From assembly GCA_903958395.1 (NCBI GenBank), contig CAJBSZ010000384.1:3156-67155 (forward strand): a DNA stretch of 64,000 bases, in the 5' to 3' direction. Positions 41,065 through 51,868 of the stretch are shown one piece after another (the stretch's first letter is position 1; each line of letters opens with the position of its first letter). A program made the position numbers and the translations under genes. The notes below the pieces were generated by a model that saw nothing but the letters and a program-made list of their open reading frames with translations, did no database searches and was not told the origin of the DNA. The DNA is from an uncultured bacterium (GTDB lineage Bacteria; Verrucomicrobiota; Kiritimatiellia; CAIKKV01; CAITUY01).

Positions 41065-41141
41065 TCTTTCCTATACGGGGTGTAGCGCAGCCTGGTAGCG
41101 CGCCAGCCTTGGGCGTTGGAAGTCGTGGGTTCAAATCCCAC
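41065..41141 (+). tRNA. tRNA-Pro (anticodon UGG)
   Basis: Hand-folded cloverleaf: acceptor CGGGGTG/CGCCCCG, D-arm GCGC-AGCCTGGTA-GCGC, anticodon stem CCAGC/GTTGG with loop CTTGGGC (U33, TGG at 34-36), T-arm GTGGG-TTCAAAT-CCCAC, encoded CCA. Confidence 0.9.
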
Positions 41142-41198
41142 CGCCCCGACCAACTTAAAGCCCGGAGTCTGAAACCTTTAAATGAAAGGAGTTTGATC

Positions 41199-45560: not shown

Positions 45561-46331
45561 CTAAAAACTGGGATTGGGGATGCTGCTGATGACCCCGGTC
45601 CCGGTATCCCACAGAAGCAAGTCCGGCGCCGACAGGGTGTCGGCGCAAAGAAAACGGGTTTTTTTCACCATCCGGTCATGCCGGATATGGAAGTGGCCAA
45701 ATACCCAGAGAGCGGGCCGGGTCTCCAGATGGTGCCATAGCCGGGAAAGCTCCATATCCCCGCAGTCATGCTCAGGGCCCGGATCGAACCCCGCGCCATG
45801 GACATGTACGGCCAGGTCGGCGGCAAACTCAGGATTCCCCCGGATCCCCACTCCGATATCCGCAGGACACGAGTGTGTGACGATCATCACGGGGTGTTCG
45901 TGATTGAACAGTTTTGTGGCGCGGGCGCGTTCGTGAACCATGATGAAATTGGCGATATTGCGGAACCAGTGCCGGTATTGAGCCCGATCCACATGCAGTG
46001 CGCCCCCGAGAAATCCCACCATCACGCCGTCCAACTGTATGATTGACGCCCGCGGTTGGAAATGAAGACTATACTGCTCCCGCCATCGTTCAGGCTCGCC
46101 GGCCTTCTCCATCTGGTGAAGCCACGCGTGGTCGTCGTGGTTACCGTCGATGGCATACACCGGAACCGGAAGGCGTCCCCCTGAAAACCCGCCGGCGAAC
46201 AAGGAGGAAAAAAATCCAAAATCGCCCGCCTGGATCACGGCGCCGATGCCATGCTGGTCCCGGATAAGGGCAAGCCTTGCCGCCATCTCCGCGTGAGCGC
46301 CATGGACATCACCTAAGAGGAGGACTTTCAT
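45561..46331 (-). CDS. calcineurin-like metallophosphoesterase
   Basis: GDVHG...GDFG...GNHD...HFH metal-binding motif series; overlaps the upstream sensor gene stop by 4 nt. Confidence 0.72.
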   Translation of the reverse strand: MKVLLLGDVHGAHAEMAARLALIRDQHGIGAVIQAGDFGFFSSLFAGGFSGGRLPVPVYAIDGNHDDHAWLHQMEKAGEPERWREQYSLHFQPRASIIQLDGVMVGFLGGALHVDRAQYRHWFRNIANFIMVHERARATKLFNHEHPVMIVTHSCPADIGVGIRGNPEFAADLAVHVHGAGFDPGPEHDCGDMELSRLWHHLETRPALWVFGHFHIRHDRMVKKTRFLCADTLSAPDLLLWDTGTGVISSIPNPSF

Positions 46332-48508
46332 AGGCTCCGGGTGAAATCAAGGCGGATCCGGGATTGGAAGACGCCGATCTGCTCGAAAATCTTCCGCAAG
46401 GCCGCCTGCTCGATCTCCGTGAGTTCTGCGGGATTCACATGATTGTCCGGGTGCTGACCCGCGGCCAGTTGGACGGCCTGATGGCGCAGCCGCCACACGG
46501 ACAGCATCTCAAATGCGGTCACCAGTTCCGCCGCGCTGGCCGGTTGCAACACTCCGGCTGCGGACAGGAGCCCGATGCGATCCAGCGTTCCAATTGCCGG
46601 AACGGCATGGCGCAAGGCATACACCCGGGCGAAATTGACGATCGGAACCAGGCCGCTTTTGATGTCGAAGGTTTCCGGATGGCTCCCGCCGGACTCCACC
46701 ACGATCTTGCCGAAGAACCCGATGGGCGGCTTGAATTCCAGGGTGCTGCGGGCCAGGTTGAAGAAAAAGGTCTCATGGGATCCGATATCGCGGAGAACAT
46801 GAAGCCTTAATTCCTCTGAAAGCGACTCATCGCCCGCGACATGCCTGAAGTCGAATACGATGTTCACGGCCTGAAGCGCCTCCGCCGTGCTGTTTTCGAC
46901 CCAGTCGTCAAACAGACGCCGCCACTGGCTGAGTGGGCGGCACCATTTTGGATTCCGGGCCATGACATCGCCCCGGCAATAGGCATAGCCTGCGGCCTGA
47001 AGTCCGTCGCAGATCCGTGTGGCCAGGGCTTTGAAATAGGCCTCGCAGGCTGCTTTGGTTTCCGGGGCAGGATCAGCATAGACCAGGGCGTTGTCCTGGT
47101 CGGTGGCGAGCGTCTGCTCCCGCCGACCGGTGCTTCCCAGTGCAAGAATTGCGTACGGCGTCGGAGCCGGACCGAGGTCCCGCCCGGCCATGGCGATCAG
47201 CCGGATCGTGACCGCATCGCACAGGGCTGAGAGAAAACCGGTGATATGACCCGCCCTGGCGCCGGCCACCAGAAGCAGGCGGACTGAGGCGGAGGCCTTG
47301 GCGCACAGCCGTTGAATATCCTCCAGCGTCCCGGCTTCCCGGACCTGCCCGATCAGGAGCGGCAGGTTTCGGCCTTCGTCCTTTAAGAGCTCCTCAGTCC
47401 CGGAAGCGTCAATCAAGGCGAGTAAGGTTCCGAATGTTGGAGCCGCCTCAAAACCTGCCACTTTGAGATATTCGCGGATACTGACCAGCAAGCCGGTTTT
47501 TCCGCCCACGGATACGGCAGACACCGCCAGAGCCACGGGCAAGGTTTTGTTGTCTTTTCCAAGCATCAAGGCATCGAAACGGGCCACGCCCCGGCCTTTT
47601 TCCAGCCATTCAATCAGCGAGGCTGAGCCGGGATGCCCGCGGACCAGTAACTCCAGGACAGGCCGCTCCCGGCAGGAGGCCTCATCCAGGCCCAACAGCG
47701 CCAGGGCAGGCTTGTTGCAGAACAGAACGCGCTGGTCAGCCACCAGCAGAATTCCTTCCGATGCGGACTCCACCAGCAACCGGTACCGGGCCTCGGATTC
47801 CCGCAGGTCCTGCTCCGCCTGACGCCGCCGTCGTTCGATGTCGTAACTCTGGCGGCCGATGACGAACAGGAGCACAGCCAGTGCGGCGGCGATGGCCAGG
47901 GACAGCCGGGTCAGCCGTCCGGTCAAACGCCGGGTTTCTGCCCGCACATCGTCCAGATAGACGCCCGTTCCGATAATCCAGCCCCATGGCGCGTACAGCT
48001 TCACAAACGAGAGCTTGGGTTCGATCCGCTCCGGATCATCCTTCCATTGCCATTGGTAGGAGGCGTAGCCTTCCCCCCGGGTCCGGGCGATGTTGACAAA
48101 CTTCACAAACACCGGGTCGCCAGCCGCATCGCGATATCCGGAGACATCCTTTCCATTCAGTTCCGCCCGGTAGGGGTGCATGACCATGACCGGGCGCAGA
48201 TCGGTTATCCAGAAGTAGTCCTTGCCCTCGCTGCCATAGCGGAGGTGACGGATTTCCGTCAGGGCAAGTTGCTGGGCCTGTTCGCGGGACAGCGTGCCGG
48301 ACTGTTCCTGGCGTCCACATTCCGAAAGGATGCCCCATGCCGCGACCGTGAGTTCCCGGATCATTTCCTTCTTCCGGTCGGTGATTGAAGTTTCAACCGT
48401 TGGTGTGACAATTCCGAAGATTGCCAGGACAAAAAGAAGCAGCACCAGGATGGCGGGAGAGACAATGCCCAGTCCGAACTGACGCCAGCTGTAATGTGGG
48501 TGAGCCAT
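46328..48508 (-). CDS. membrane sensor: sCache_2 periplasmic domain - TM - PAS - GlnD-like nucleotidyltransferase (DUF294 + DUF294_C)
   Basis: TM1, sCache_2 signature (DYFWITD...HPY...GYASYQWQWK...KLSFVKLYAPWGWIIGTGVYLDD), TM2, PAS (EARYRLLVESASEGILLVADQ), pol-beta NTase motif GSTGRREQTLATDQDNAL and helical substrate-binding tail. Confidence 0.65.
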   Translation of the reverse strand: MAHPHYSWRQFGLGIVSPAILVLLLFVLAIFGIVTPTVETSITDRKKEMIRELTVAAWGILSECGRQEQSGTLSREQAQQLALTEIRHLRYGSEGKDYFWITDLRPVMVMHPYRAELNGKDVSGYRDAAGDPVFVKFVNIARTRGEGYASYQWQWKDDPERIEPKLSFVKLYAPWGWIIGTGVYLDDVRAETRRLTGRLTRLSLAIAAALAVLLFVIGRQSYDIERRRRQAEQDLRESEARYRLLVESASEGILLVADQRVLFCNKPALALLGLDEASCRERPVLELLVRGHPGSASLIEWLEKGRGVARFDALMLGKDNKTLPVALAVSAVSVGGKTGLLVSIREYLKVAGFEAAPTFGTLLALIDASGTEELLKDEGRNLPLLIGQVREAGTLEDIQRLCAKASASVRLLLVAGARAGHITGFLSALCDAVTIRLIAMAGRDLGPAPTPYAILALGSTGRREQTLATDQDNALVYADPAPETKAACEAYFKALATRICDGLQAAGYAYCRGDVMARNPKWCRPLSQWRRLFDDWVENSTAEALQAVNIVFDFRHVAGDESLSEELRLHVLRDIGSHETFFFNLARSTLEFKPPIGFFGKIVVESGGSHPETFDIKSGLVPIVNFARVYALRHAVPAIGTLDRIGLLSAAGVLQPASAAELVTAFEMLSVWRLRHQAVQLAAGQHPDNHVNPAELTEIEQAALRKIFEQIGVFQSRIRLDFTRSL

Positions 48509-48538
48509 GCTTCGGCTTATAGCACCCGAATCCCCCGC

Positions 48539-48568
48539 TTGACAAGTCTCCCCTCCTTATTGATAAGG
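48539..48568 (+). promoter_or_regulatory. candidate sigma70-like promoter (TTGACA-N17-GATAAG) overlapping a 6-2-6 inverted repeat CCTTATtgATAAGG in the sensor/actP divergent intergenic region
   Basis: Read directly; the inverted repeat lies at 48555..48568 over the putative -10 region. Confidence 0.3.
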
Positions 48569-48606
48569 TATGGCCCTTAAATTTAGTAACAACCCAGGAG
48601 AAGACT

Positions 48607-48855
48607 ATGAGCGACCCGGACATTTCCTCAGCCCCACCGCCACTTACGGGCATGCGACGAAAGGTGCTGGTCAACTTTGGCCTTTTTGCCCTCTTTTTCT
48701 TCTTCTATCTTGGCGCGGCCGTAGTGCAGACGCCCTCCTGCAAGGACATTGCCGCCCGGCAGGTGTTTGGAATGCCGTTCGGGTTGCTTCTCTCGCTGAT
48801 GATTTTCCCGGTGTCGTGGCTGTTGATTGTAATCTGGTTCAAAAAGGCGCGGTGA
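48607..48855 (+). CDS. DUF485-family small membrane protein (YjcH-like ActP partner)
   Basis: 82 aa, two TM helices, immediately upstream of actP as in E. coli yjcH-actP. Confidence 0.75.
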   Translation: MSDPDISSAPPPLTGMRRKVLVNFGLFALFFFFYLGAAVVQTPSCKDIAARQVFGMPFGLLLSLMIFPVSWLLIVIWFKKAR

Positions 48856-48860
48856 TCCCC

Positions 48861-50564
48861 ATGTTTAATACACTCCCTGCATTTCTTGCTTCACCTGTTT
48901 TCGCCGTGGCCGCCCCGGATGCCCTCAAGGGCAGCACCCTCGACACGGGTATTGTCATCGGTTTTATCATGTTCTTTGTGGTGGCGAGTATTGTCATCAC
49001 GTGGTGGACCAGTCGCTCCACCAAGTCCGCCAGTGATTTTTACGTGGCCGGGAAAGGGGTTCCCTGGGTCCAGGTGGGCATTGCCATGGTGGGAAGCTAT
49101 CTTTCCGCTGCAAGTTTCCTGGGCTGTGCAGGCGACATCGGGGTGTTCGGGATCGACTCGATCTGGCTCTCCATCGGCTTCTTCGGCGGGTACATGGCCG
49201 TGTTGCTGCTGATTGCCGGTCCCTTGCGCAATGTGGGTTCCTATACGGTGGCGGGAGCCCTGTACCGCCGCTTTCCCGATGACCGTGTCAAGCTGGCGGT
49301 GATGGTCTGTACCATCGTGATTTCCACCTTCTACCTGGTGCCCCAGATGCTGGGTGCCGGATTGTTGTTCGAAATGCTGCTGGGCTGGAATTTTGTCTGG
49401 GTGACTGTCGGGCTCGGCGTCTTGATGAGTGTCTACATCATCTTTGGCGGCATGAAGTCTACCCTTTACAACCAGGTCATCCAGGCGGTGTTTCTCTGGA
49501 TTGCCATGGTGGTGCTGACGGTGATGGCCTATTTCGTCGTGGGTCATGGCTCATTTTCGGGGATTCTGCAGAGCGCCTATGAGACGGTGCCCCCCATGCT
49601 TGCTGGCAAGAATCCGGAAGCGGTGAAAGCGATTGCCGGGTTGTCTGCGGAGCAGGCCATTACGGCCGTTCGTCAGGTAATGCCCGCGGCGGATAGCGTC
49701 ATGTCCATTGGCGTCAAGACCGACAGTACGCTGGCCATGATCAGCACTGTCATCGCGCTGGTATTTGGAACGGCGGGACTGCCGCATATCCTGATCATGT
49801 TCTTTACCGTCCCCAGCGCGCGGGCGGCGAAGAAGAGCGTGACGCTCTGCATCGTGGCGTTGGGCATCTTCTACTTGTGCGCAATAATTCTCGGCTTCCT
49901 GCTTTTCCCCGCCATCTATCCCAAGCTGGTGGGTTGGATTGCGCAGGGAGCGACCGGGGTCGGATTGGCCAAGAATATGGCCGTTCTCGAGATCAGTCAG
50001 ATGGTTGGCGGTCCCTGGTTGATGGCCATCGGCGCGGCCGGTGCCGTTGCGGCGATTTTGTCCACCGCCGCCGGGCTGATGATCACTGTGGCCTCTTCCA
50101 TCAGTCATGACCTCTATAAGGTCTACATCAATCGGAATGCCACCGAGAAACAGGAACTCGGGATTGCCAAGGTCACCACCCTGGTGATGTCTGCCGTTGC
50201 GGTTTCTTTGGCGGTCCTCCTGAAAAACGAAAATATTGCCTGGCTGGTGATGCTGGCCTTTGGCATTGCCGCCAGCGCCATCTTCCCGGCTATGCTGGCC
50301 ACCCTGTGGTGGAAGCGGACGACCCGGCAGGCCGTGATTGGCAGTATCCTGACTGGACTGGCCGTGTCCGTGTTATTCATCGTCCTGTTGTTCATCAAGG
50401 GAGTCAAATACAAGTTTCTCGGGTTGCCGGTGGCGGGCGGGCCGGGCCTCTTCGGGGTCAGCGCCTCATTTATCGTGCTCTTCGTTGTCAGTCTTGTGAC
50501 GAAGGATACCGGCAAGGATCCGGATCAGTTCCTGGCATTGGCTCACAAGCCCGACGTAGATTGA
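48861..50564 (+). CDS. actP: cation/acetate (monocarboxylate) symporter, SSS family
   Basis: About 13 TM; SSS signatures (DFYVAGKGVPW, GGMKST); start at MFNTLP, 6 nt after the DUF485 stop. Confidence 0.82.
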   Translation: MFNTLPAFLASPVFAVAAPDALKGSTLDTGIVIGFIMFFVVASIVITWWTSRSTKSASDFYVAGKGVPWVQVGIAMVGSYLSAASFLGCAGDIGVFGIDSIWLSIGFFGGYMAVLLLIAGPLRNVGSYTVAGALYRRFPDDRVKLAVMVCTIVISTFYLVPQMLGAGLLFEMLLGWNFVWVTVGLGVLMSVYIIFGGMKSTLYNQVIQAVFLWIAMVVLTVMAYFVVGHGSFSGILQSAYETVPPMLAGKNPEAVKAIAGLSAEQAITAVRQVMPAADSVMSIGVKTDSTLAMISTVIALVFGTAGLPHILIMFFTVPSARAAKKSVTLCIVALGIFYLCAIILGFLLFPAIYPKLVGWIAQGATGVGLAKNMAVLEISQMVGGPWLMAIGAAGAVAAILSTAAGLMITVASSISHDLYKVYINRNATEKQELGIAKVTTLVMSAVAVSLAVLLKNENIAWLVMLAFGIAASAIFPAMLATLWWKRTTRQAVIGSILTGLAVSVLFIVLLFIKGVKYKFLGLPVAGGPGLFGVSASFIVLFVVSLVTKDTGKDPDQFLALAHKPDVD

Positions 50565-50566
50565 AT

Positions 50567-51868
50567 TTAATGGCTCAGCCCGTTCTGAAGCAGAAAGACG
50601 GCAATACCGGAAAAATATCCGAGTGCGGCCAGGCCGCCGATTTTTTTCGCATACCAGAAGAAGTGAATTTTCTCCAGTCCCATGGCGGCCACGCCTGCGG
50701 CTGAGCCGATAATGAGAATCGATCCGCCGGTGCCGGCGCAGTAGGACATGAAGCCCCAGAGAAAACTGTCAGGCGGGTAGGTTGCCAGGTCGTACATTCC
50801 CATGGAGGCGGCAACCAGAGGAACGTTATCGACCACCGCGCTGGCAAGGCCGATCAAGGTGACGATGATGTCCTGGCGACCGACCGTCCGGTCGAGCCAC
50901 CCGGCGAGGGAGGCGAGAATGTGCGTATGTTCCAGAGTGGCCACGGCCAGAAGGATGCCCACAAAGAAGACGATGCAACTCATGTCGATGCGTTTCAGCG
51001 CCGCCGTCAGGGTGAGGTGCAGCTTGAATTCGTCCTTTTTGTTGCGGTGAAGCAACTCTCCCACCAGCCAGAGAATGCCCAGGCCAAAGAGGATTCCCAT
51101 AAACGGGGGCAGATGAGTCACCGACTTGAACAGGGGCACCGCGACCAGGGTCCCGATGCCCAGGCAGAAGATAAAGGTTCGCTCAAAGGGGGTTGTCTGC
51201 ATGAGGCTGTCACTGGCGCTGCTTTTCGGGGGTACGACCAGTTTGCCGCGGAGGGTGAAGGTCAACAGGATCAACGGCACCACAAGGCAGGCCAGGGAGG
51301 GGAGGAAAACGCCTTTCATGATATTGAGTGTGGTGATCTGGCCGCCGATCCACAGCATGGTTGTGGTGACATCGCCAATGGGGGTCCAGGCTCCGCCGGC
51401 ATTGGCGGCAATGACAATGATGCCGGCAAAAAAGAGGCGGTCATCATGCCGGTCGAGCAGTCGTTTCATGAGGGAGATCATGACGATGGTGGTCGTCAGG
51501 TTATCGAGAATCGAACTCAGGAAAAAGCTGACAAATCCCACCAGCCAGAGCAATGAGGTGAGTTTAGCGGTCTTGATTCGCGAGGTGATGACATAAAAAC
51601 CGTTATGGGCATCGATCACCTCGACAATCGTCATGGCTCCCATCAGGAAGAAGACGATCTGGGCCGTGGCCGCCACGGATTCATTCAAATTGTGCTTTAC
51701 GGCCTCGTGATCACCGGTCATCAGGGCATAGAGTGTCCAGAGGAGCCCGGCGCCGATAAGTGCGGAAGCCGTTTTATTAACCTTGAGTGGGTGCTCAAGC
51801 GCAATGGCGGTATAGGCCAGAATAAATACGATAATCAGTGCTGTAATCATCCGGTCACGATATCGCAC
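50567..51868 (-). CDS. nhaD: NhaD/ArsB-superfamily Na+/H+ antiporter
   Basis: 433 aa, ~11 TM, NhaD-like repeat architecture. Confidence 0.7.
   Translation of the reverse strand: MRYRDRMITALIIVFILAYTAIALEHPLKVNKTASALIGAGLLWTLYALMTGDHEAVKHNLNESVAATAQIVFFLMGAMTIVEVIDAHNGFYVITSRIKTAKLTSLLWLVGFVSFFLSSILDNLTTTIVMISLMKRLLDRHDDRLFFAGIIVIAANAGGAWTPIGDVTTTMLWIGGQITTLNIMKGVFLPSLACLVVPLILLTFTLRGKLVVPPKSSASDSLMQTTPFERTFIFCLGIGTLVAVPLFKSVTHLPPFMGILFGLGILWLVGELLHRNKKDEFKLHLTLTAALKRIDMSCIVFFVGILLAVATLEHTHILASLAGWLDRTVGRQDIIVTLIGLASAVVDNVPLVAASMGMYDLATYPPDSFLWGFMSYCAGTGGSILIIGSAAGVAAMGLEKIHFFWYAKKIGGLAALGYFSGIAVFLLQNGLSH

Follow-up and report, generated by a model that had tools for sequence, protein, structure and literature searches.

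A Cache- and PAS-bearing DUF294 membrane protein with phosphoesterase and symporter neighbours: a possible carboxylate-sensing module with a non-kinase output

Described systems closest to the locus

DUF294 (COG2905) is a large, long-annotated protein family for which, to our knowledge, no activity has been demonstrated. In Pseudomonas and Vibrio, regulons tie the family to the metabolism of acetate and pyruvate, a connection that has reportedly puzzled its few investigators. The closest studied relative of the locus described here is the PP_0354/PP_0353 pair of Pseudomonas putida, which is of the PA3233/PA3232 type and consists of a COG2905 protein and an RNase T-like exonuclease. This pair resembles the present locus in its DUF294 + DUF294_C core, in being encoded together with a phosphoesterase or nuclease in an operon of two genes, and in its link to actP-yjcH. 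PP_0354 is, however, a soluble protein with cNMP-binding and CBS sensors in place of the TM-Cache-TM-PAS arrangement, and PP_0353 is a DnaQ/RNase_T exonuclease rather than a calcineurin-like metallophosphoesterase or a PHP domain. The pair is a direct target of the acetate regulator ErdR and belongs to the MxtR/ErdR acetate/pyruvate regulon, and in P. aeruginosa a pair of this type adjoins actP-yjcH (PMC9927547). A pyruvate growth defect is common to PP_0353 and actP-I mutants, and deletion of PP_0354 in P. putida results in no acetate phenotype (PMC9927547). A whole-word literature search on DUF294 returned nothing functional, and no published description of a Cache-DUF294 architecture was found.

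GlnE, GlnD, and DrrA/SidM share with the DUF294 module of this locus a G-X11-D-X-D motif and a helical, substrate-binding C-terminal domain that falls in the same Pfam clan. They differ in that the identity is 13-16%, in that they have no membrane anchor or extracellular sensor, and in that their targets (GS, PII, and Rab1) are unrelated to this locus. GlnD, in which a nucleotidyltransferase is combined with an HD domain, and DrrA with SidD in Legionella follow a writer/eraser logic that uses a metal-dependent hydrolase. The eraser in the GlnE, GlnD, and DrrA-SidD systems is an HD domain, a PPM fold, or a second nucleotidyltransferase domain, whereas the locus and its relatives have a metallophosphoesterase or PHP domain as the candidate.

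The sensor part has its counterparts elsewhere. The chemoreceptors PscD, McpP, and Adeh_3718 feature the same type of Cache domain with an identical seven-residue carboxylate pocket, and the kinase MctS governs a monocarboxylate permease of the SSF family. The output in these chemoreceptors and in MctS-MctR-MctP is an MCP signalling domain or a histidine kinase, whereas here it is a nucleotidyltransferase. In the acs-yjcH-actP operon of E. coli, as in this locus, the gene of a small membrane protein (DUF485 in E. coli, putatively DUF485-like here) is coupled in translation to that of an SSF symporter of the ActP/MctC group. The operon differs in its acs gene, none being present in the neighbourhood of this symporter, and in that the present symporter scores below the ActP cutoffs.

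The four genes and their domains

The locus is located in a window of 64,000 nucleotides, the whole stretch of DNA that was analysed, and consists of two divergent gene pairs (Table 1). The open reading frames, the domains, the 98-bp intergenic region, and the 4-nt overlap between the 726-aa sensor gene and the phosphoesterase gene all lie where the initial annotation had placed them, and the overlap (ATGA) is read directly in the sequence. The locus was compared with 76 related loci from approximately 20 phyla, of which a subset of 43 has flanks of 5 kb or more on either side.

Table 1. Features of the Cache-DUF294 locus (positions are those of the window).
Feature	Position	Strand	Description
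Metallophosphoesterase gene	45561..46331	-	256 aa, calcineurin-like, cytoplasmic
Membrane sensor gene	46328..48508	-	726 aa: TM, sCache_2, TM, PAS, DUF294, DUF294_C
DUF294 + DUF294_C catalytic module	46343..47293	-	residues 406-722; GlnE/DrrA-type nucleotidyltransferase by fold
PAS domain, cytoplasmic	47474..47791	-	residues 240-345; linker/transmitter, TM2 to enzyme
sCache_2 domain, periplasmic	47933..48382	-	residues 43-192; predicted C2/C3 carboxylate pocket
Divergent intergenic region	48509..48606	.	98 bp
Inverted repeat CCTTATtgATAAGG	48555-48568		intergenic region
RBS AGGAGAAG	48596-48603		intergenic region
Small protein gene, putatively DUF485/YjcH-like	48607..48855	+	82 aa, two TM, translationally coupled to symporter gene
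SSF symporter gene, ActP/MctC-like	48852..50564	+	likelier start ATG 48861 = 567 aa

The four domains that had been called in the 726-aa protein, sCache_2, PAS, DUF294, and DUF294_C, all score above the Pfam gathering scores. The sCache_2 match has an E-value of 3e-38 (131.6 bits, GA 25), and the PAS domain is matched by PAS_8 at 1.8e-8 and by PAS at 4.5e-5. Hydropathy analysis places two TM segments at approximately residues 8-43 and 197-222, which enclose the Cache domain. The claim that the protein has no conventional output also held, as Pfam finds no histidine kinase, GGDEF, or HTH domain in it. Pfam finds no cNMP-binding or CBS domain either, and the protein departs from the classical COG2905 sensor architecture. 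A CBS pair replaces or supplements the PAS domain in most relatives, and many retain this pair behind the Cache domain.

A search of the PDB revealed that the Cache domain is nearest to acetate-bound Adeh_3718 and propionate-bound PscD, with E-values of 1e-36 to 1e-38 (4k08 at 9e-38 and 5g4y at 8e-37), and the top NCBIfam match for this region is MctS (4e-22). The residues that contact the ligand in PscD, Y90, W92, H103, F126, Y143, W145, and K156, correspond to Y98, W100, H111, F134, Y151, W153, and K165 in the 726-aa protein, so that 7/7 are identical, and the family alignment (A1) shows no variation at these seven positions. The identical pocket and the nearest ligand-bound structures strengthen the earlier carboxylate-sensing reading, and on these sequence comparisons we strongly infer that the ligand of the Cache domain is a monocarboxylate of the C2/C3 class, for example acetate, glycolate, propionate, or pyruvate.

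The C-terminus of the protein is matched, in order, by the two profiles that make up the COG2905 core, DUF294 (PF03445) at residues 406-541 with an E-value of 7e-46 (155.9 bits, GA 21) and DUF294_C (PF10335) at residues 580-722 with an E-value of 3e-43 (147.6 bits, GA 22.5). The motif G458-X11-D470-X-D472 and a third acidic residue, D553, are invariant in the same alignment. DUF294_C is terminal in 76/76 loci, with a tail of at most 12 aa and no C-terminal fusion. Neither phmmer nor a profile search found a PDB chain for the nucleotidyltransferase part, which was modelled with a pLDDT of 91.9. The only significant PDB folds found for this model by Foldseek are GlnE (3k7d and 1v4a, both halves) and DrrA (6yx5), with E-values of 1e-8 to 2e-8 and TM scores of 0.66-0.68, and the next matches are aminoglycoside nucleotidyltransferases with E>1e-2 and TM scores of ~0.3. 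Anantharaman et al. likewise grouped DUF294_C with GlnD, GlnE, and DrrA in 2013 (PMC3710099). In its predicted fold and its catalytic motif the DUF294 module matches the protein adenylyltransferases GlnE and DrrA, from which we infer its activity.

The 256-aa protein scores 34.9 bits with Metallophos (GA 21.5) and 39.9 bits with Metallophos_2 (GA 27) in Pfam, and 27.9 bits with the YfcE family model (NCBIfam TIGR00040), which is under the cutoff of 56.25. No hydrophobic segment or signal peptide was found in it. The motifs DxH, GD, GNH[DE], H, and GHxH are present, and their residues D8, H10, D37, N64, H65, H153, H213, and H215 do not vary among 38 homologs. The model of the protein (pLDDT 90.6) has Dbr1, aq_1956, GpdQ, Rv0805, and SbcD/Mre11 as its top PDB folds.

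The symporter matches Pfam SSF with an E-value of 2e-68 (231.5 bits) and has approximately 12 hydrophobic segments. Comparison of the N-terminus with that of the homolog in locus L082 makes ATG 48861 a likelier start than GTG 48852. The best NCBIfam matches are the ActP subfamily (9e-101) and MctC (2e-100), all below the cutoffs: the ActP models compared (TIGR02711 / PRK09395) give 281 against 1099 and 338 against 750, and MctC gives 337 against 670. The 82-aa protein has two hydrophobic segments and matches DUF485 at 3e-4 with 21.2 bits, under the Pfam threshold of 28. The putative DUF485 assignment gains support from a match to an HMM built from the small proteins among the neighbours (E-value 1e-22), from the two TM segments, and from the position of the gene, and the counterpart in locus L014 is a clear DUF485 protein (1.4e-11). 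The pair had been annotated as DUF485-ActP; an ActP/MctC-like SSF symporter and a small two-TM partner are indeed present, but both proteins score below the cutoffs for those names. A regulatory tail that would distinguish nucleotidyltransferase-linked symporters was considered and rejected. The symporters differ in nothing but a loop insertion of ~120-130 aa, which is present in Verrucomicrobia-type transporters and not in the clade of the window, and which is uninformative on the target.

The intergenic region had been described as containing a promoter and an inverted repeat. The sequences are present, however a consensus scan of the region called no sigma-70 promoter and the repeat is not conserved. 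By eye, TTGACA is located at 48539-48544 and is followed after 17 nt by a weak candidate -10 element, GATAAG, at 48562-48567, and the repeat, CCTTATTGATAAGG, spans 48555-48568. The repeat CCTTATtgATAAGG has no exact copy in any of the 86 related loci, and among relatives of 67-70% identity the intergenic region is not alignable. With up to 2 mismatches the repeat has 2 matches in the window against 0.85 expected. An operator role for it was dropped as unsupported. An Rfam scan of the window found no riboswitch near the module; its sole match is a tRNA at 41076-41149.

Conservation of the module

The four genes form one real module that occurs in many bacterial phyla. Among GTDB species representatives, at least 591 have the architecture, and 906 protein clusters match it at E<=1e-10. 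Desulfobacter latus is one of the carriers. The initial annotation had called a Cache/PAS-gated DUF294 protein unusual; with at least 591 species-level genomes carrying it, the architecture is not rare. The flanking genes vary even between relatives of 67-81% identity, and a sCache_2 histidine kinase adjoins the module in seven related loci. No response regulator or DNA-binding partner was found in the window.

The linkage to a transporter, which had been proposed as a check, holds across the approximately 20 phyla. In 53/76 loci, and in 33/43 of those with full flanks, there is a nearby ActP-like SSF symporter, whose small subunit is of the DUF485 or DUF4212 type. No SSF gene is nearby in the other 23/76. 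In these SSF-less loci, 87 neighbouring proteins were searched with Pfam for a further recurrent partner, for example another transporter or a DnaQ exonuclease, and every family found was limited to at most three loci. The SSF symporter with its small subunit is the single conserved neighbour and is the prime candidate for the target of the enzyme.

A phosphoesterase is attached to the nucleotidyltransferase in 54/76 loci and none is recognised in 22/76. An adjacent calcineurin-like gene is present in 28/76 loci, a PHP domain takes its place in 26/76, and the two never occur together (0/76). The PHP domain lies N-terminally, not C-terminally or internally, and in locus L085 a PHP-Cache-PAS protein is encoded by a separate gene that adjoins the Cache-PAS-nucleotidyltransferase gene. 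The metal motifs of the PHP domains are intact and their catalytic residues are invariant across phyla. Loci L006-L023 have an N-terminal module of 148 aa, which may be a third hydrolase. In a reverse look-up, 3/3 phosphoesterase homologs retrieved by a search of their own sit in the same module. The earlier suggestion that the phosphoesterase may reverse the modification gains support from this pattern of one or the other and never both, and the 256-aa protein is the dedicated partner of the nucleotidyltransferase and its candidate eraser.

Proposed mechanism, alternatives, and meaning

The best explanation of the module is that a carboxylate-gated protein nucleotidylyltransferase and an erasing phosphoesterase tune monocarboxylate uptake post-translationally. 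We hold this reading tentatively, at a little under an even chance, and the target is its least certain part. An extracellular C2/C3 monocarboxylate would be bound by the periplasmic sCache_2 domain, and the signal would pass through TM2 and the PAS domain to the cytoplasmic DUF294 enzyme. The enzyme would most likely modify a target protein on a Tyr, Ser, or Thr residue, with one NMP or a short chain of them, and the co-translated metallophosphoesterase would hydrolyse the resulting phosphodiester, in parallel to the HD domain of GlnD and to SidD acting with DrrA. Judged from the gene neighbourhood, the target would most likely be the symporter complex of SSF and DUF485 proteins, or else one of its binding partners. 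In that case, uptake of the sensed acid would be tuned post-translationally by its external level. The lack of a DNA-binding output makes such control of actP likelier than control of its expression. The explanation draws on the PscD-type pocket, the GlnE/DrrA fold and motif, the phosphoesterase pairing, the SSF linkage, and the Pseudomonas biology. Against it are the 23/76 loci with no nearby SSF gene, the 22/76 with no recognised phosphoesterase, the PP_0354 deletion that has no acetate phenotype, the nucleic-acid phosphodiesterases among the folds nearest to the phosphoesterase, and the exonuclease that partners the soluble homologs.

An unlikely alternative is the tailing and trimming of nucleic acids, in which DUF294 would add untemplated 3' nucleotides and the phosphoesterase would trim them; the stability of mRNAs for transport or metabolism, or their translation, would then respond to carboxylate. 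DnaQ, PHP, and Mre11-type domains are known 3'-5' exonucleases, so that an oligonucleotide or RNA substrate is conceivable, and the metallophosphoesterase, PHP, and DnaQ-like families each include such enzymes. The fold closest to the phosphoesterase model is Dbr1, and its nearest folds (Dbr1, Mre11/SbcD) are nucleic-acid phosphodiesterases. PP_0353 matches RNase_T, and its authors speculated on mRNA degradation (PMC9927547). The nucleotidyltransferase itself argues otherwise: the RNA-specific folds, TUTase and poly(A) polymerase (mitochondrial PAP), match the DUF294 module in Foldseek only with E>0.29 and TM scores of ~0.2, against 1e-8 and 0.67 for GlnE/DrrA, no RNA-binding domain is found by Pfam, and the enzyme is tethered to the membrane beside a transporter.

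It is quite improbable that the pair handles a second messenger, the nucleotidyltransferase answering the carboxylate signal with a free nucleotide, linear or cyclic, and the phosphoesterase degrading this product. We know of no release of a nucleotide messenger by GlnE/DrrA-type enzymes, cGAS/DncV/OAS-type enzymes are absent from the top 50 fold matches to the DUF294 module, and the neighbourhoods show no recurrent gene that would be a candidate for a receptor or effector. These points stand against the pairing logic of a synthase with a phosphodiesterase, as in cyclases and phosphodiesterases, the resemblance of the phosphoesterase to Rv0805 and GpdQ-type phosphodiesterases, and the nucleotide-binding CBS pairs of many relatives. 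That the linkage is coincidental or the enzyme domains degenerate, leaving a non-catalytic ligand-binding or scaffold partner of the transporter, would fit the weak phenotypes of the Pseudomonas homologs and the want of any demonstrated DUF294 activity, but it is very improbable given that the catalytic residues of the nucleotidyltransferase, metallophosphoesterase, and PHP domains are invariant across phyla and that the module is kept in approximately 20 phyla despite changing flanks.

The preferred reading, protein nucleotidylylation with an eraser, gives four handles on DUF294, a predictable ligand class, an enzyme fold, an eraser candidate, and a candidate target, which together make a directly testable hypothesis. 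The eraser candidate would come in interchangeable forms, a metallophosphoesterase or PHP domain here and a DnaQ-like protein in the soluble pair. A wider proposal, which is possible though doubtful, is that Cache-DUF294 proteins with a metallophosphoesterase or PHP domain are an unrecognised class of one-component transmembrane signalling, in which an extracellular metabolite directly gates reversible protein AMPylation or UMPylation and in which the first substrate is the adjacent symporter complex, an "acetate valve" in approximately 20 phyla. If this is true, nucleotidylylation would take the place of phosphorylation, methylation, and c-di-GMP turnover as the output of sensing in this class. 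Confirmation would add AMPylation-type chemistry to the outputs of bacterial extracellular sensing, and would reveal a post-translational control of short-chain fatty acid uptake that is relevant to microbes of the gut, sediment, and wastewater.

Gene content of the module

The NT protein, a 726-aa membrane-bound nucleotidyltransferase, features sCache_2, PAS, DUF294 and DUF294_C domains, all above Pfam gathering scores, and Pfam detected no kinase, GGDEF or DNA-binding domain on it, in agreement with the initial annotation. The Cache domain is flanked by two hydrophobic segments, which places it in the periplasm and the remainder of the protein in the cytoplasm. The partner is, as described, a calcineurin-like metallophosphoesterase (Pfam) with neither a signal peptide nor a TM segment, and its start codon shares ATGA with the NT stop codon in a 4-nt overlap. 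The symporter is ActP/MctC-like at 1e-100, yet it falls below the NCBIfam equivalog cutoffs, and the small protein, which has two TM segments, is sub-threshold for Pfam DUF485 (21.2 vs 28 bits) but matches an HMM of small proteins adjoining related transporters (E 1e-22). Two starts are possible for the symporter ORF: GTG 48852, which gives a 4-nt overlap with the TGA stop of the small ORF, and ATG 48861. Comparison of the N-terminus with that of an 81%-identity relative (MSITLPSFLASP vs MFNTLPAFLASP) indicates that ATG 48861 is probably the true start.

The 98-bp divergent intergenic region holds the TTGACA and the inverted repeat reported for it. A consensus scan called no promoter there, and the repeat was found in none of the related loci. 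Between close relatives, these intergenic sequences do not align. The NhaD gene is convergent with the symporter gene, and its 3' end contains a terminator-like hairpin, GCGGCCAGGCCGC, and then a T-run, ~60 nt past the symporter stop codon. The window genes on one side of the module (porin, ABC permease, TatD) and on the other (NhaD, PSP1, PfkB, NuoE/F-like) are unrelated to it. The sole Rfam match across the 64-kb window is a tRNA gene.

Features of the window and of related loci (L numbers)
Feature	Position	Strand	Source or loci
Metallophosphoesterase, 256 aa	45561-46331	-	ORF map, Pfam
NT protein, 726 aa	46328-48508	-	ORF map, Pfam
sCache_2	NT residues 43-192		Pfam
PAS	NT residues 240-345		Pfam
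DUF294	NT residues 406-541		Pfam
DUF294_C	NT residues 580-722		Pfam
DUF485-like small protein, 82 aa	48607-48855	+	ORF map
SSF symporter gene	end at 50564	+	ORF map
Terminator-like hairpin	50625-50647	+	
NhaD gene	50567-51868	-	
tRNA gene	41076-41149	+	Rfam
PHP-Cache-PAS gene, 610 aa	L085:406-2238	-	
~148-aa extension	e.g. L007:3479-3922		L006, L007, L008, L016, L017, L018, L021, L023
AP_endonuc_2 gene	e.g. L025:7665-8711	-	L025, L041, L047, L060
AP_endonuc_2 gene, further case	L089:9560-10750		
Verrucomicrobia-type NT-linked symporters	L087:5869-7830, L088:5961-7880, L089:5838-7763		
sCache_2 histidine kinase	e.g. L029:7124-8665		L027, L029, L030, L038, L039, L073, L078

Sensor and enzyme structures

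The closest relatives of the Cache domain (E 1e-36 to 1e-38) are Adeh_3718, which has a crystal structure with acetate, and PscD, which is propionate-bound and also binds acetate, glycolate and pyruvate. The seven residues listed as PscD ligand contacts (PMC5062169) are all identical in the HMMER alignment with the NT protein (Y98, W100, H111, F134, Y151, W153 and K165), and they are invariant among 16 aligned family members. Below E 1e-3, an AlphaFold model of the enzyme part (residues 385-726, pLDDT 91.9) matches four PDB chains only: two of the GlnE adenylylation domain, one of the GlnE deadenylylation domain, and DrrA bound to Rab8a (TM 0.66-0.68). Aminoglycoside nucleotidyltransferases come next (E>1e-2) and RNA nucleotidyltransferases give E>0.29. 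This fold match agrees with the earlier grouping of DUF294_C with GlnD/GlnE/DrrA by sequence (PMC3710099). The G458-X11-D470-X-D472 motif and D553 are invariant in the family alignment. The metallophosphoesterase model has a canonical fold (pLDDT 90.6) with all metal ligands invariant among homologs, and is nearest to the phosphodiesterases Dbr1, aq_1956, GpdQ, Rv0805 and SbcD/Mre11 (TM about 0.5-0.63). Domain identities, topology, and intact catalytic and ligand residues are established for the module.

Distribution and gene neighbourhoods

A Cache-gated DUF294 protein had been considered unusual, but a protein search brought up 906 clusters (E<=1e-10), almost all of them Cache-(PAS)-(CBS pair)-DUF294-DUF294_C. 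In a GTDB scan of one genome per species, at least 591 relatives were confirmed out of the 600 pattern matches listed; hosts among these matches include Lentisphaerae, Planctomycetota, Verrucomicrobiota, Spirochaetes, Desulfobacterota, Krumholzibacteria, Bacteroidota, Chloroflexota, Armatimonadota, Acidobacteriota, NC10 and others. NCBIfam has no family covering the whole protein, and a literature search found no paper on the Cache-DUF294 architecture.

Neighbourhoods were surveyed with HMMs built from the loci themselves and run against six-frame translations; 80 loci were fetched, and the NT C-terminus is complete in 76. The CBS-less form found in the window (about 680-770 aa) is a minority (24/76). 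An ActP-like SSF gene flanks 53 of the 76 loci, and 33 of the 43 whose flanks both reach at least 5 kb; a small subunit, DUF485 or DUF4212, nearly always accompanies it (Pfam check). The SSF gene lies on the same strand as the NT gene upstream in 22 loci and downstream in 6, and on the opposite strand upstream and divergent in 12, which is the window's arrangement, and downstream and convergent in 13. Relatives of 67-81% identity retain the four genes while their flanks differ, and no other family recurs in loci lacking the SSF gene. Verrucomicrobia-type symporters linked to NT genes are about 640-650 aa and feature a ~120-130 aa loop insertion missing from the window's 567-aa clade. In seven loci a sCache_2 histidine kinase (HisKA + HATPase_c) adjoins the module, so a single transporter locus can hold two carboxylate sensors of the Cache type whose outputs differ.

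A metallophosphoesterase homolog is directly adjacent to the NT gene on the same strand in 28/76 loci (Pfam check; 22 downstream, 6 upstream). In its place, 26/76 carry a PHP domain at the NT protein N-terminus, preceding TM1 (confirmed in the related proteins P0096, P0103 and P0119) and with invariant canonical His/Asp metal motifs; no locus of the 76 has both. Reciprocally, three of three metallophosphoesterase homologs picked from that protein's own search have a Cache-CBS-DUF294 gene on one side and a convergent SSF-DUF485 pair on the other. Both the conserved linkage of the genes and the complementary occurrence of the two types of phosphoesterase are established. In L085, a PHP-Cache-PAS gene without a nucleotidyltransferase is separate and divergent from a DUF4212-SSF-(Cache-PAS-DUF294) operon; the arrangement resembles a PHP-fused protein that has been split, with a Cache sensor for the writer and another for the eraser. 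Neither partner is found in 22 loci, and eight of these feature a conserved N-terminal extension of ~148 aa directly upstream of the Cache TM1, where PHP is found elsewhere; it is rich in His, Asp and Cys (MRISEHADHS...HRKYRHC...ECHIKDDYDGYLP...), its sole Pfam match is a sub-threshold DUF6915, and it may act as a third kind of partner. In four other loci with neither partner an AP_endonuc_2 (xylose-isomerase-like TIM barrel) gene adjoins the NT gene; this family includes endonuclease IV-type phosphodiesterases and many sugar isomerases.

Proposed mechanism and alternatives

An external C2/C3 carboxylate would gate a GlnE/DrrA-like protein nucleotidyltransferase, and the modification would be removed by the metallophosphoesterase or, elsewhere, by the PHP domain. 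For a writer/eraser pair there are precedents in GlnD, whose NT domain comes together with an HD hydrolase, and in DrrA, which is paired with the metal-dependent deAMPylase SidD. The transporter complex is the only gene product consistently co-located with the module, which makes it the best candidate for the target or functional endpoint; this is the weakest step. The NT/phosphoesterase pair could possibly instead tail and trim RNA or oligonucleotides, since the known 3'-5' exonuclease families include the DnaQ, PHP and Mre11 types of domain and the metallophosphoesterase model resembles Dbr1, but the NT fold speaks against this. If the modification were oligo-AMPylation of a protein, as carried out by the nucleotidyltransferase MntA, an exonuclease-like eraser and a protein target would be compatible. 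A synthase/phosphodiesterase pair for a second messenger is improbable, having neither fold support nor a conserved receptor gene, and degenerate enzymes or coincidental linkage are contradicted by invariant active sites and conservation across phyla.

The module has a monocarboxylate theme in common with the soluble Pseudomonas putida DUF294 protein PP_0354 and its RNase T-like partner PP_0353. Both are direct ErdR targets, their counterparts adjoin actP-yjcH in P. aeruginosa, and growth on pyruvate is impaired in PP_0353 mutants and in actP-I mutants alike (PMC9927547).

The finding is real, and the initial reading survives its own refutation tests, namely domain searches, which support sCache_2 and DUF294, and the association of homologs with actP. 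The NT protein belongs to a membrane-bound DUF294 branch, widespread and undescribed, that has a phosphoesterase dedicated to it and a conserved link to monocarboxylate symporters. The module offers a direct experimental route to DUF294 function.
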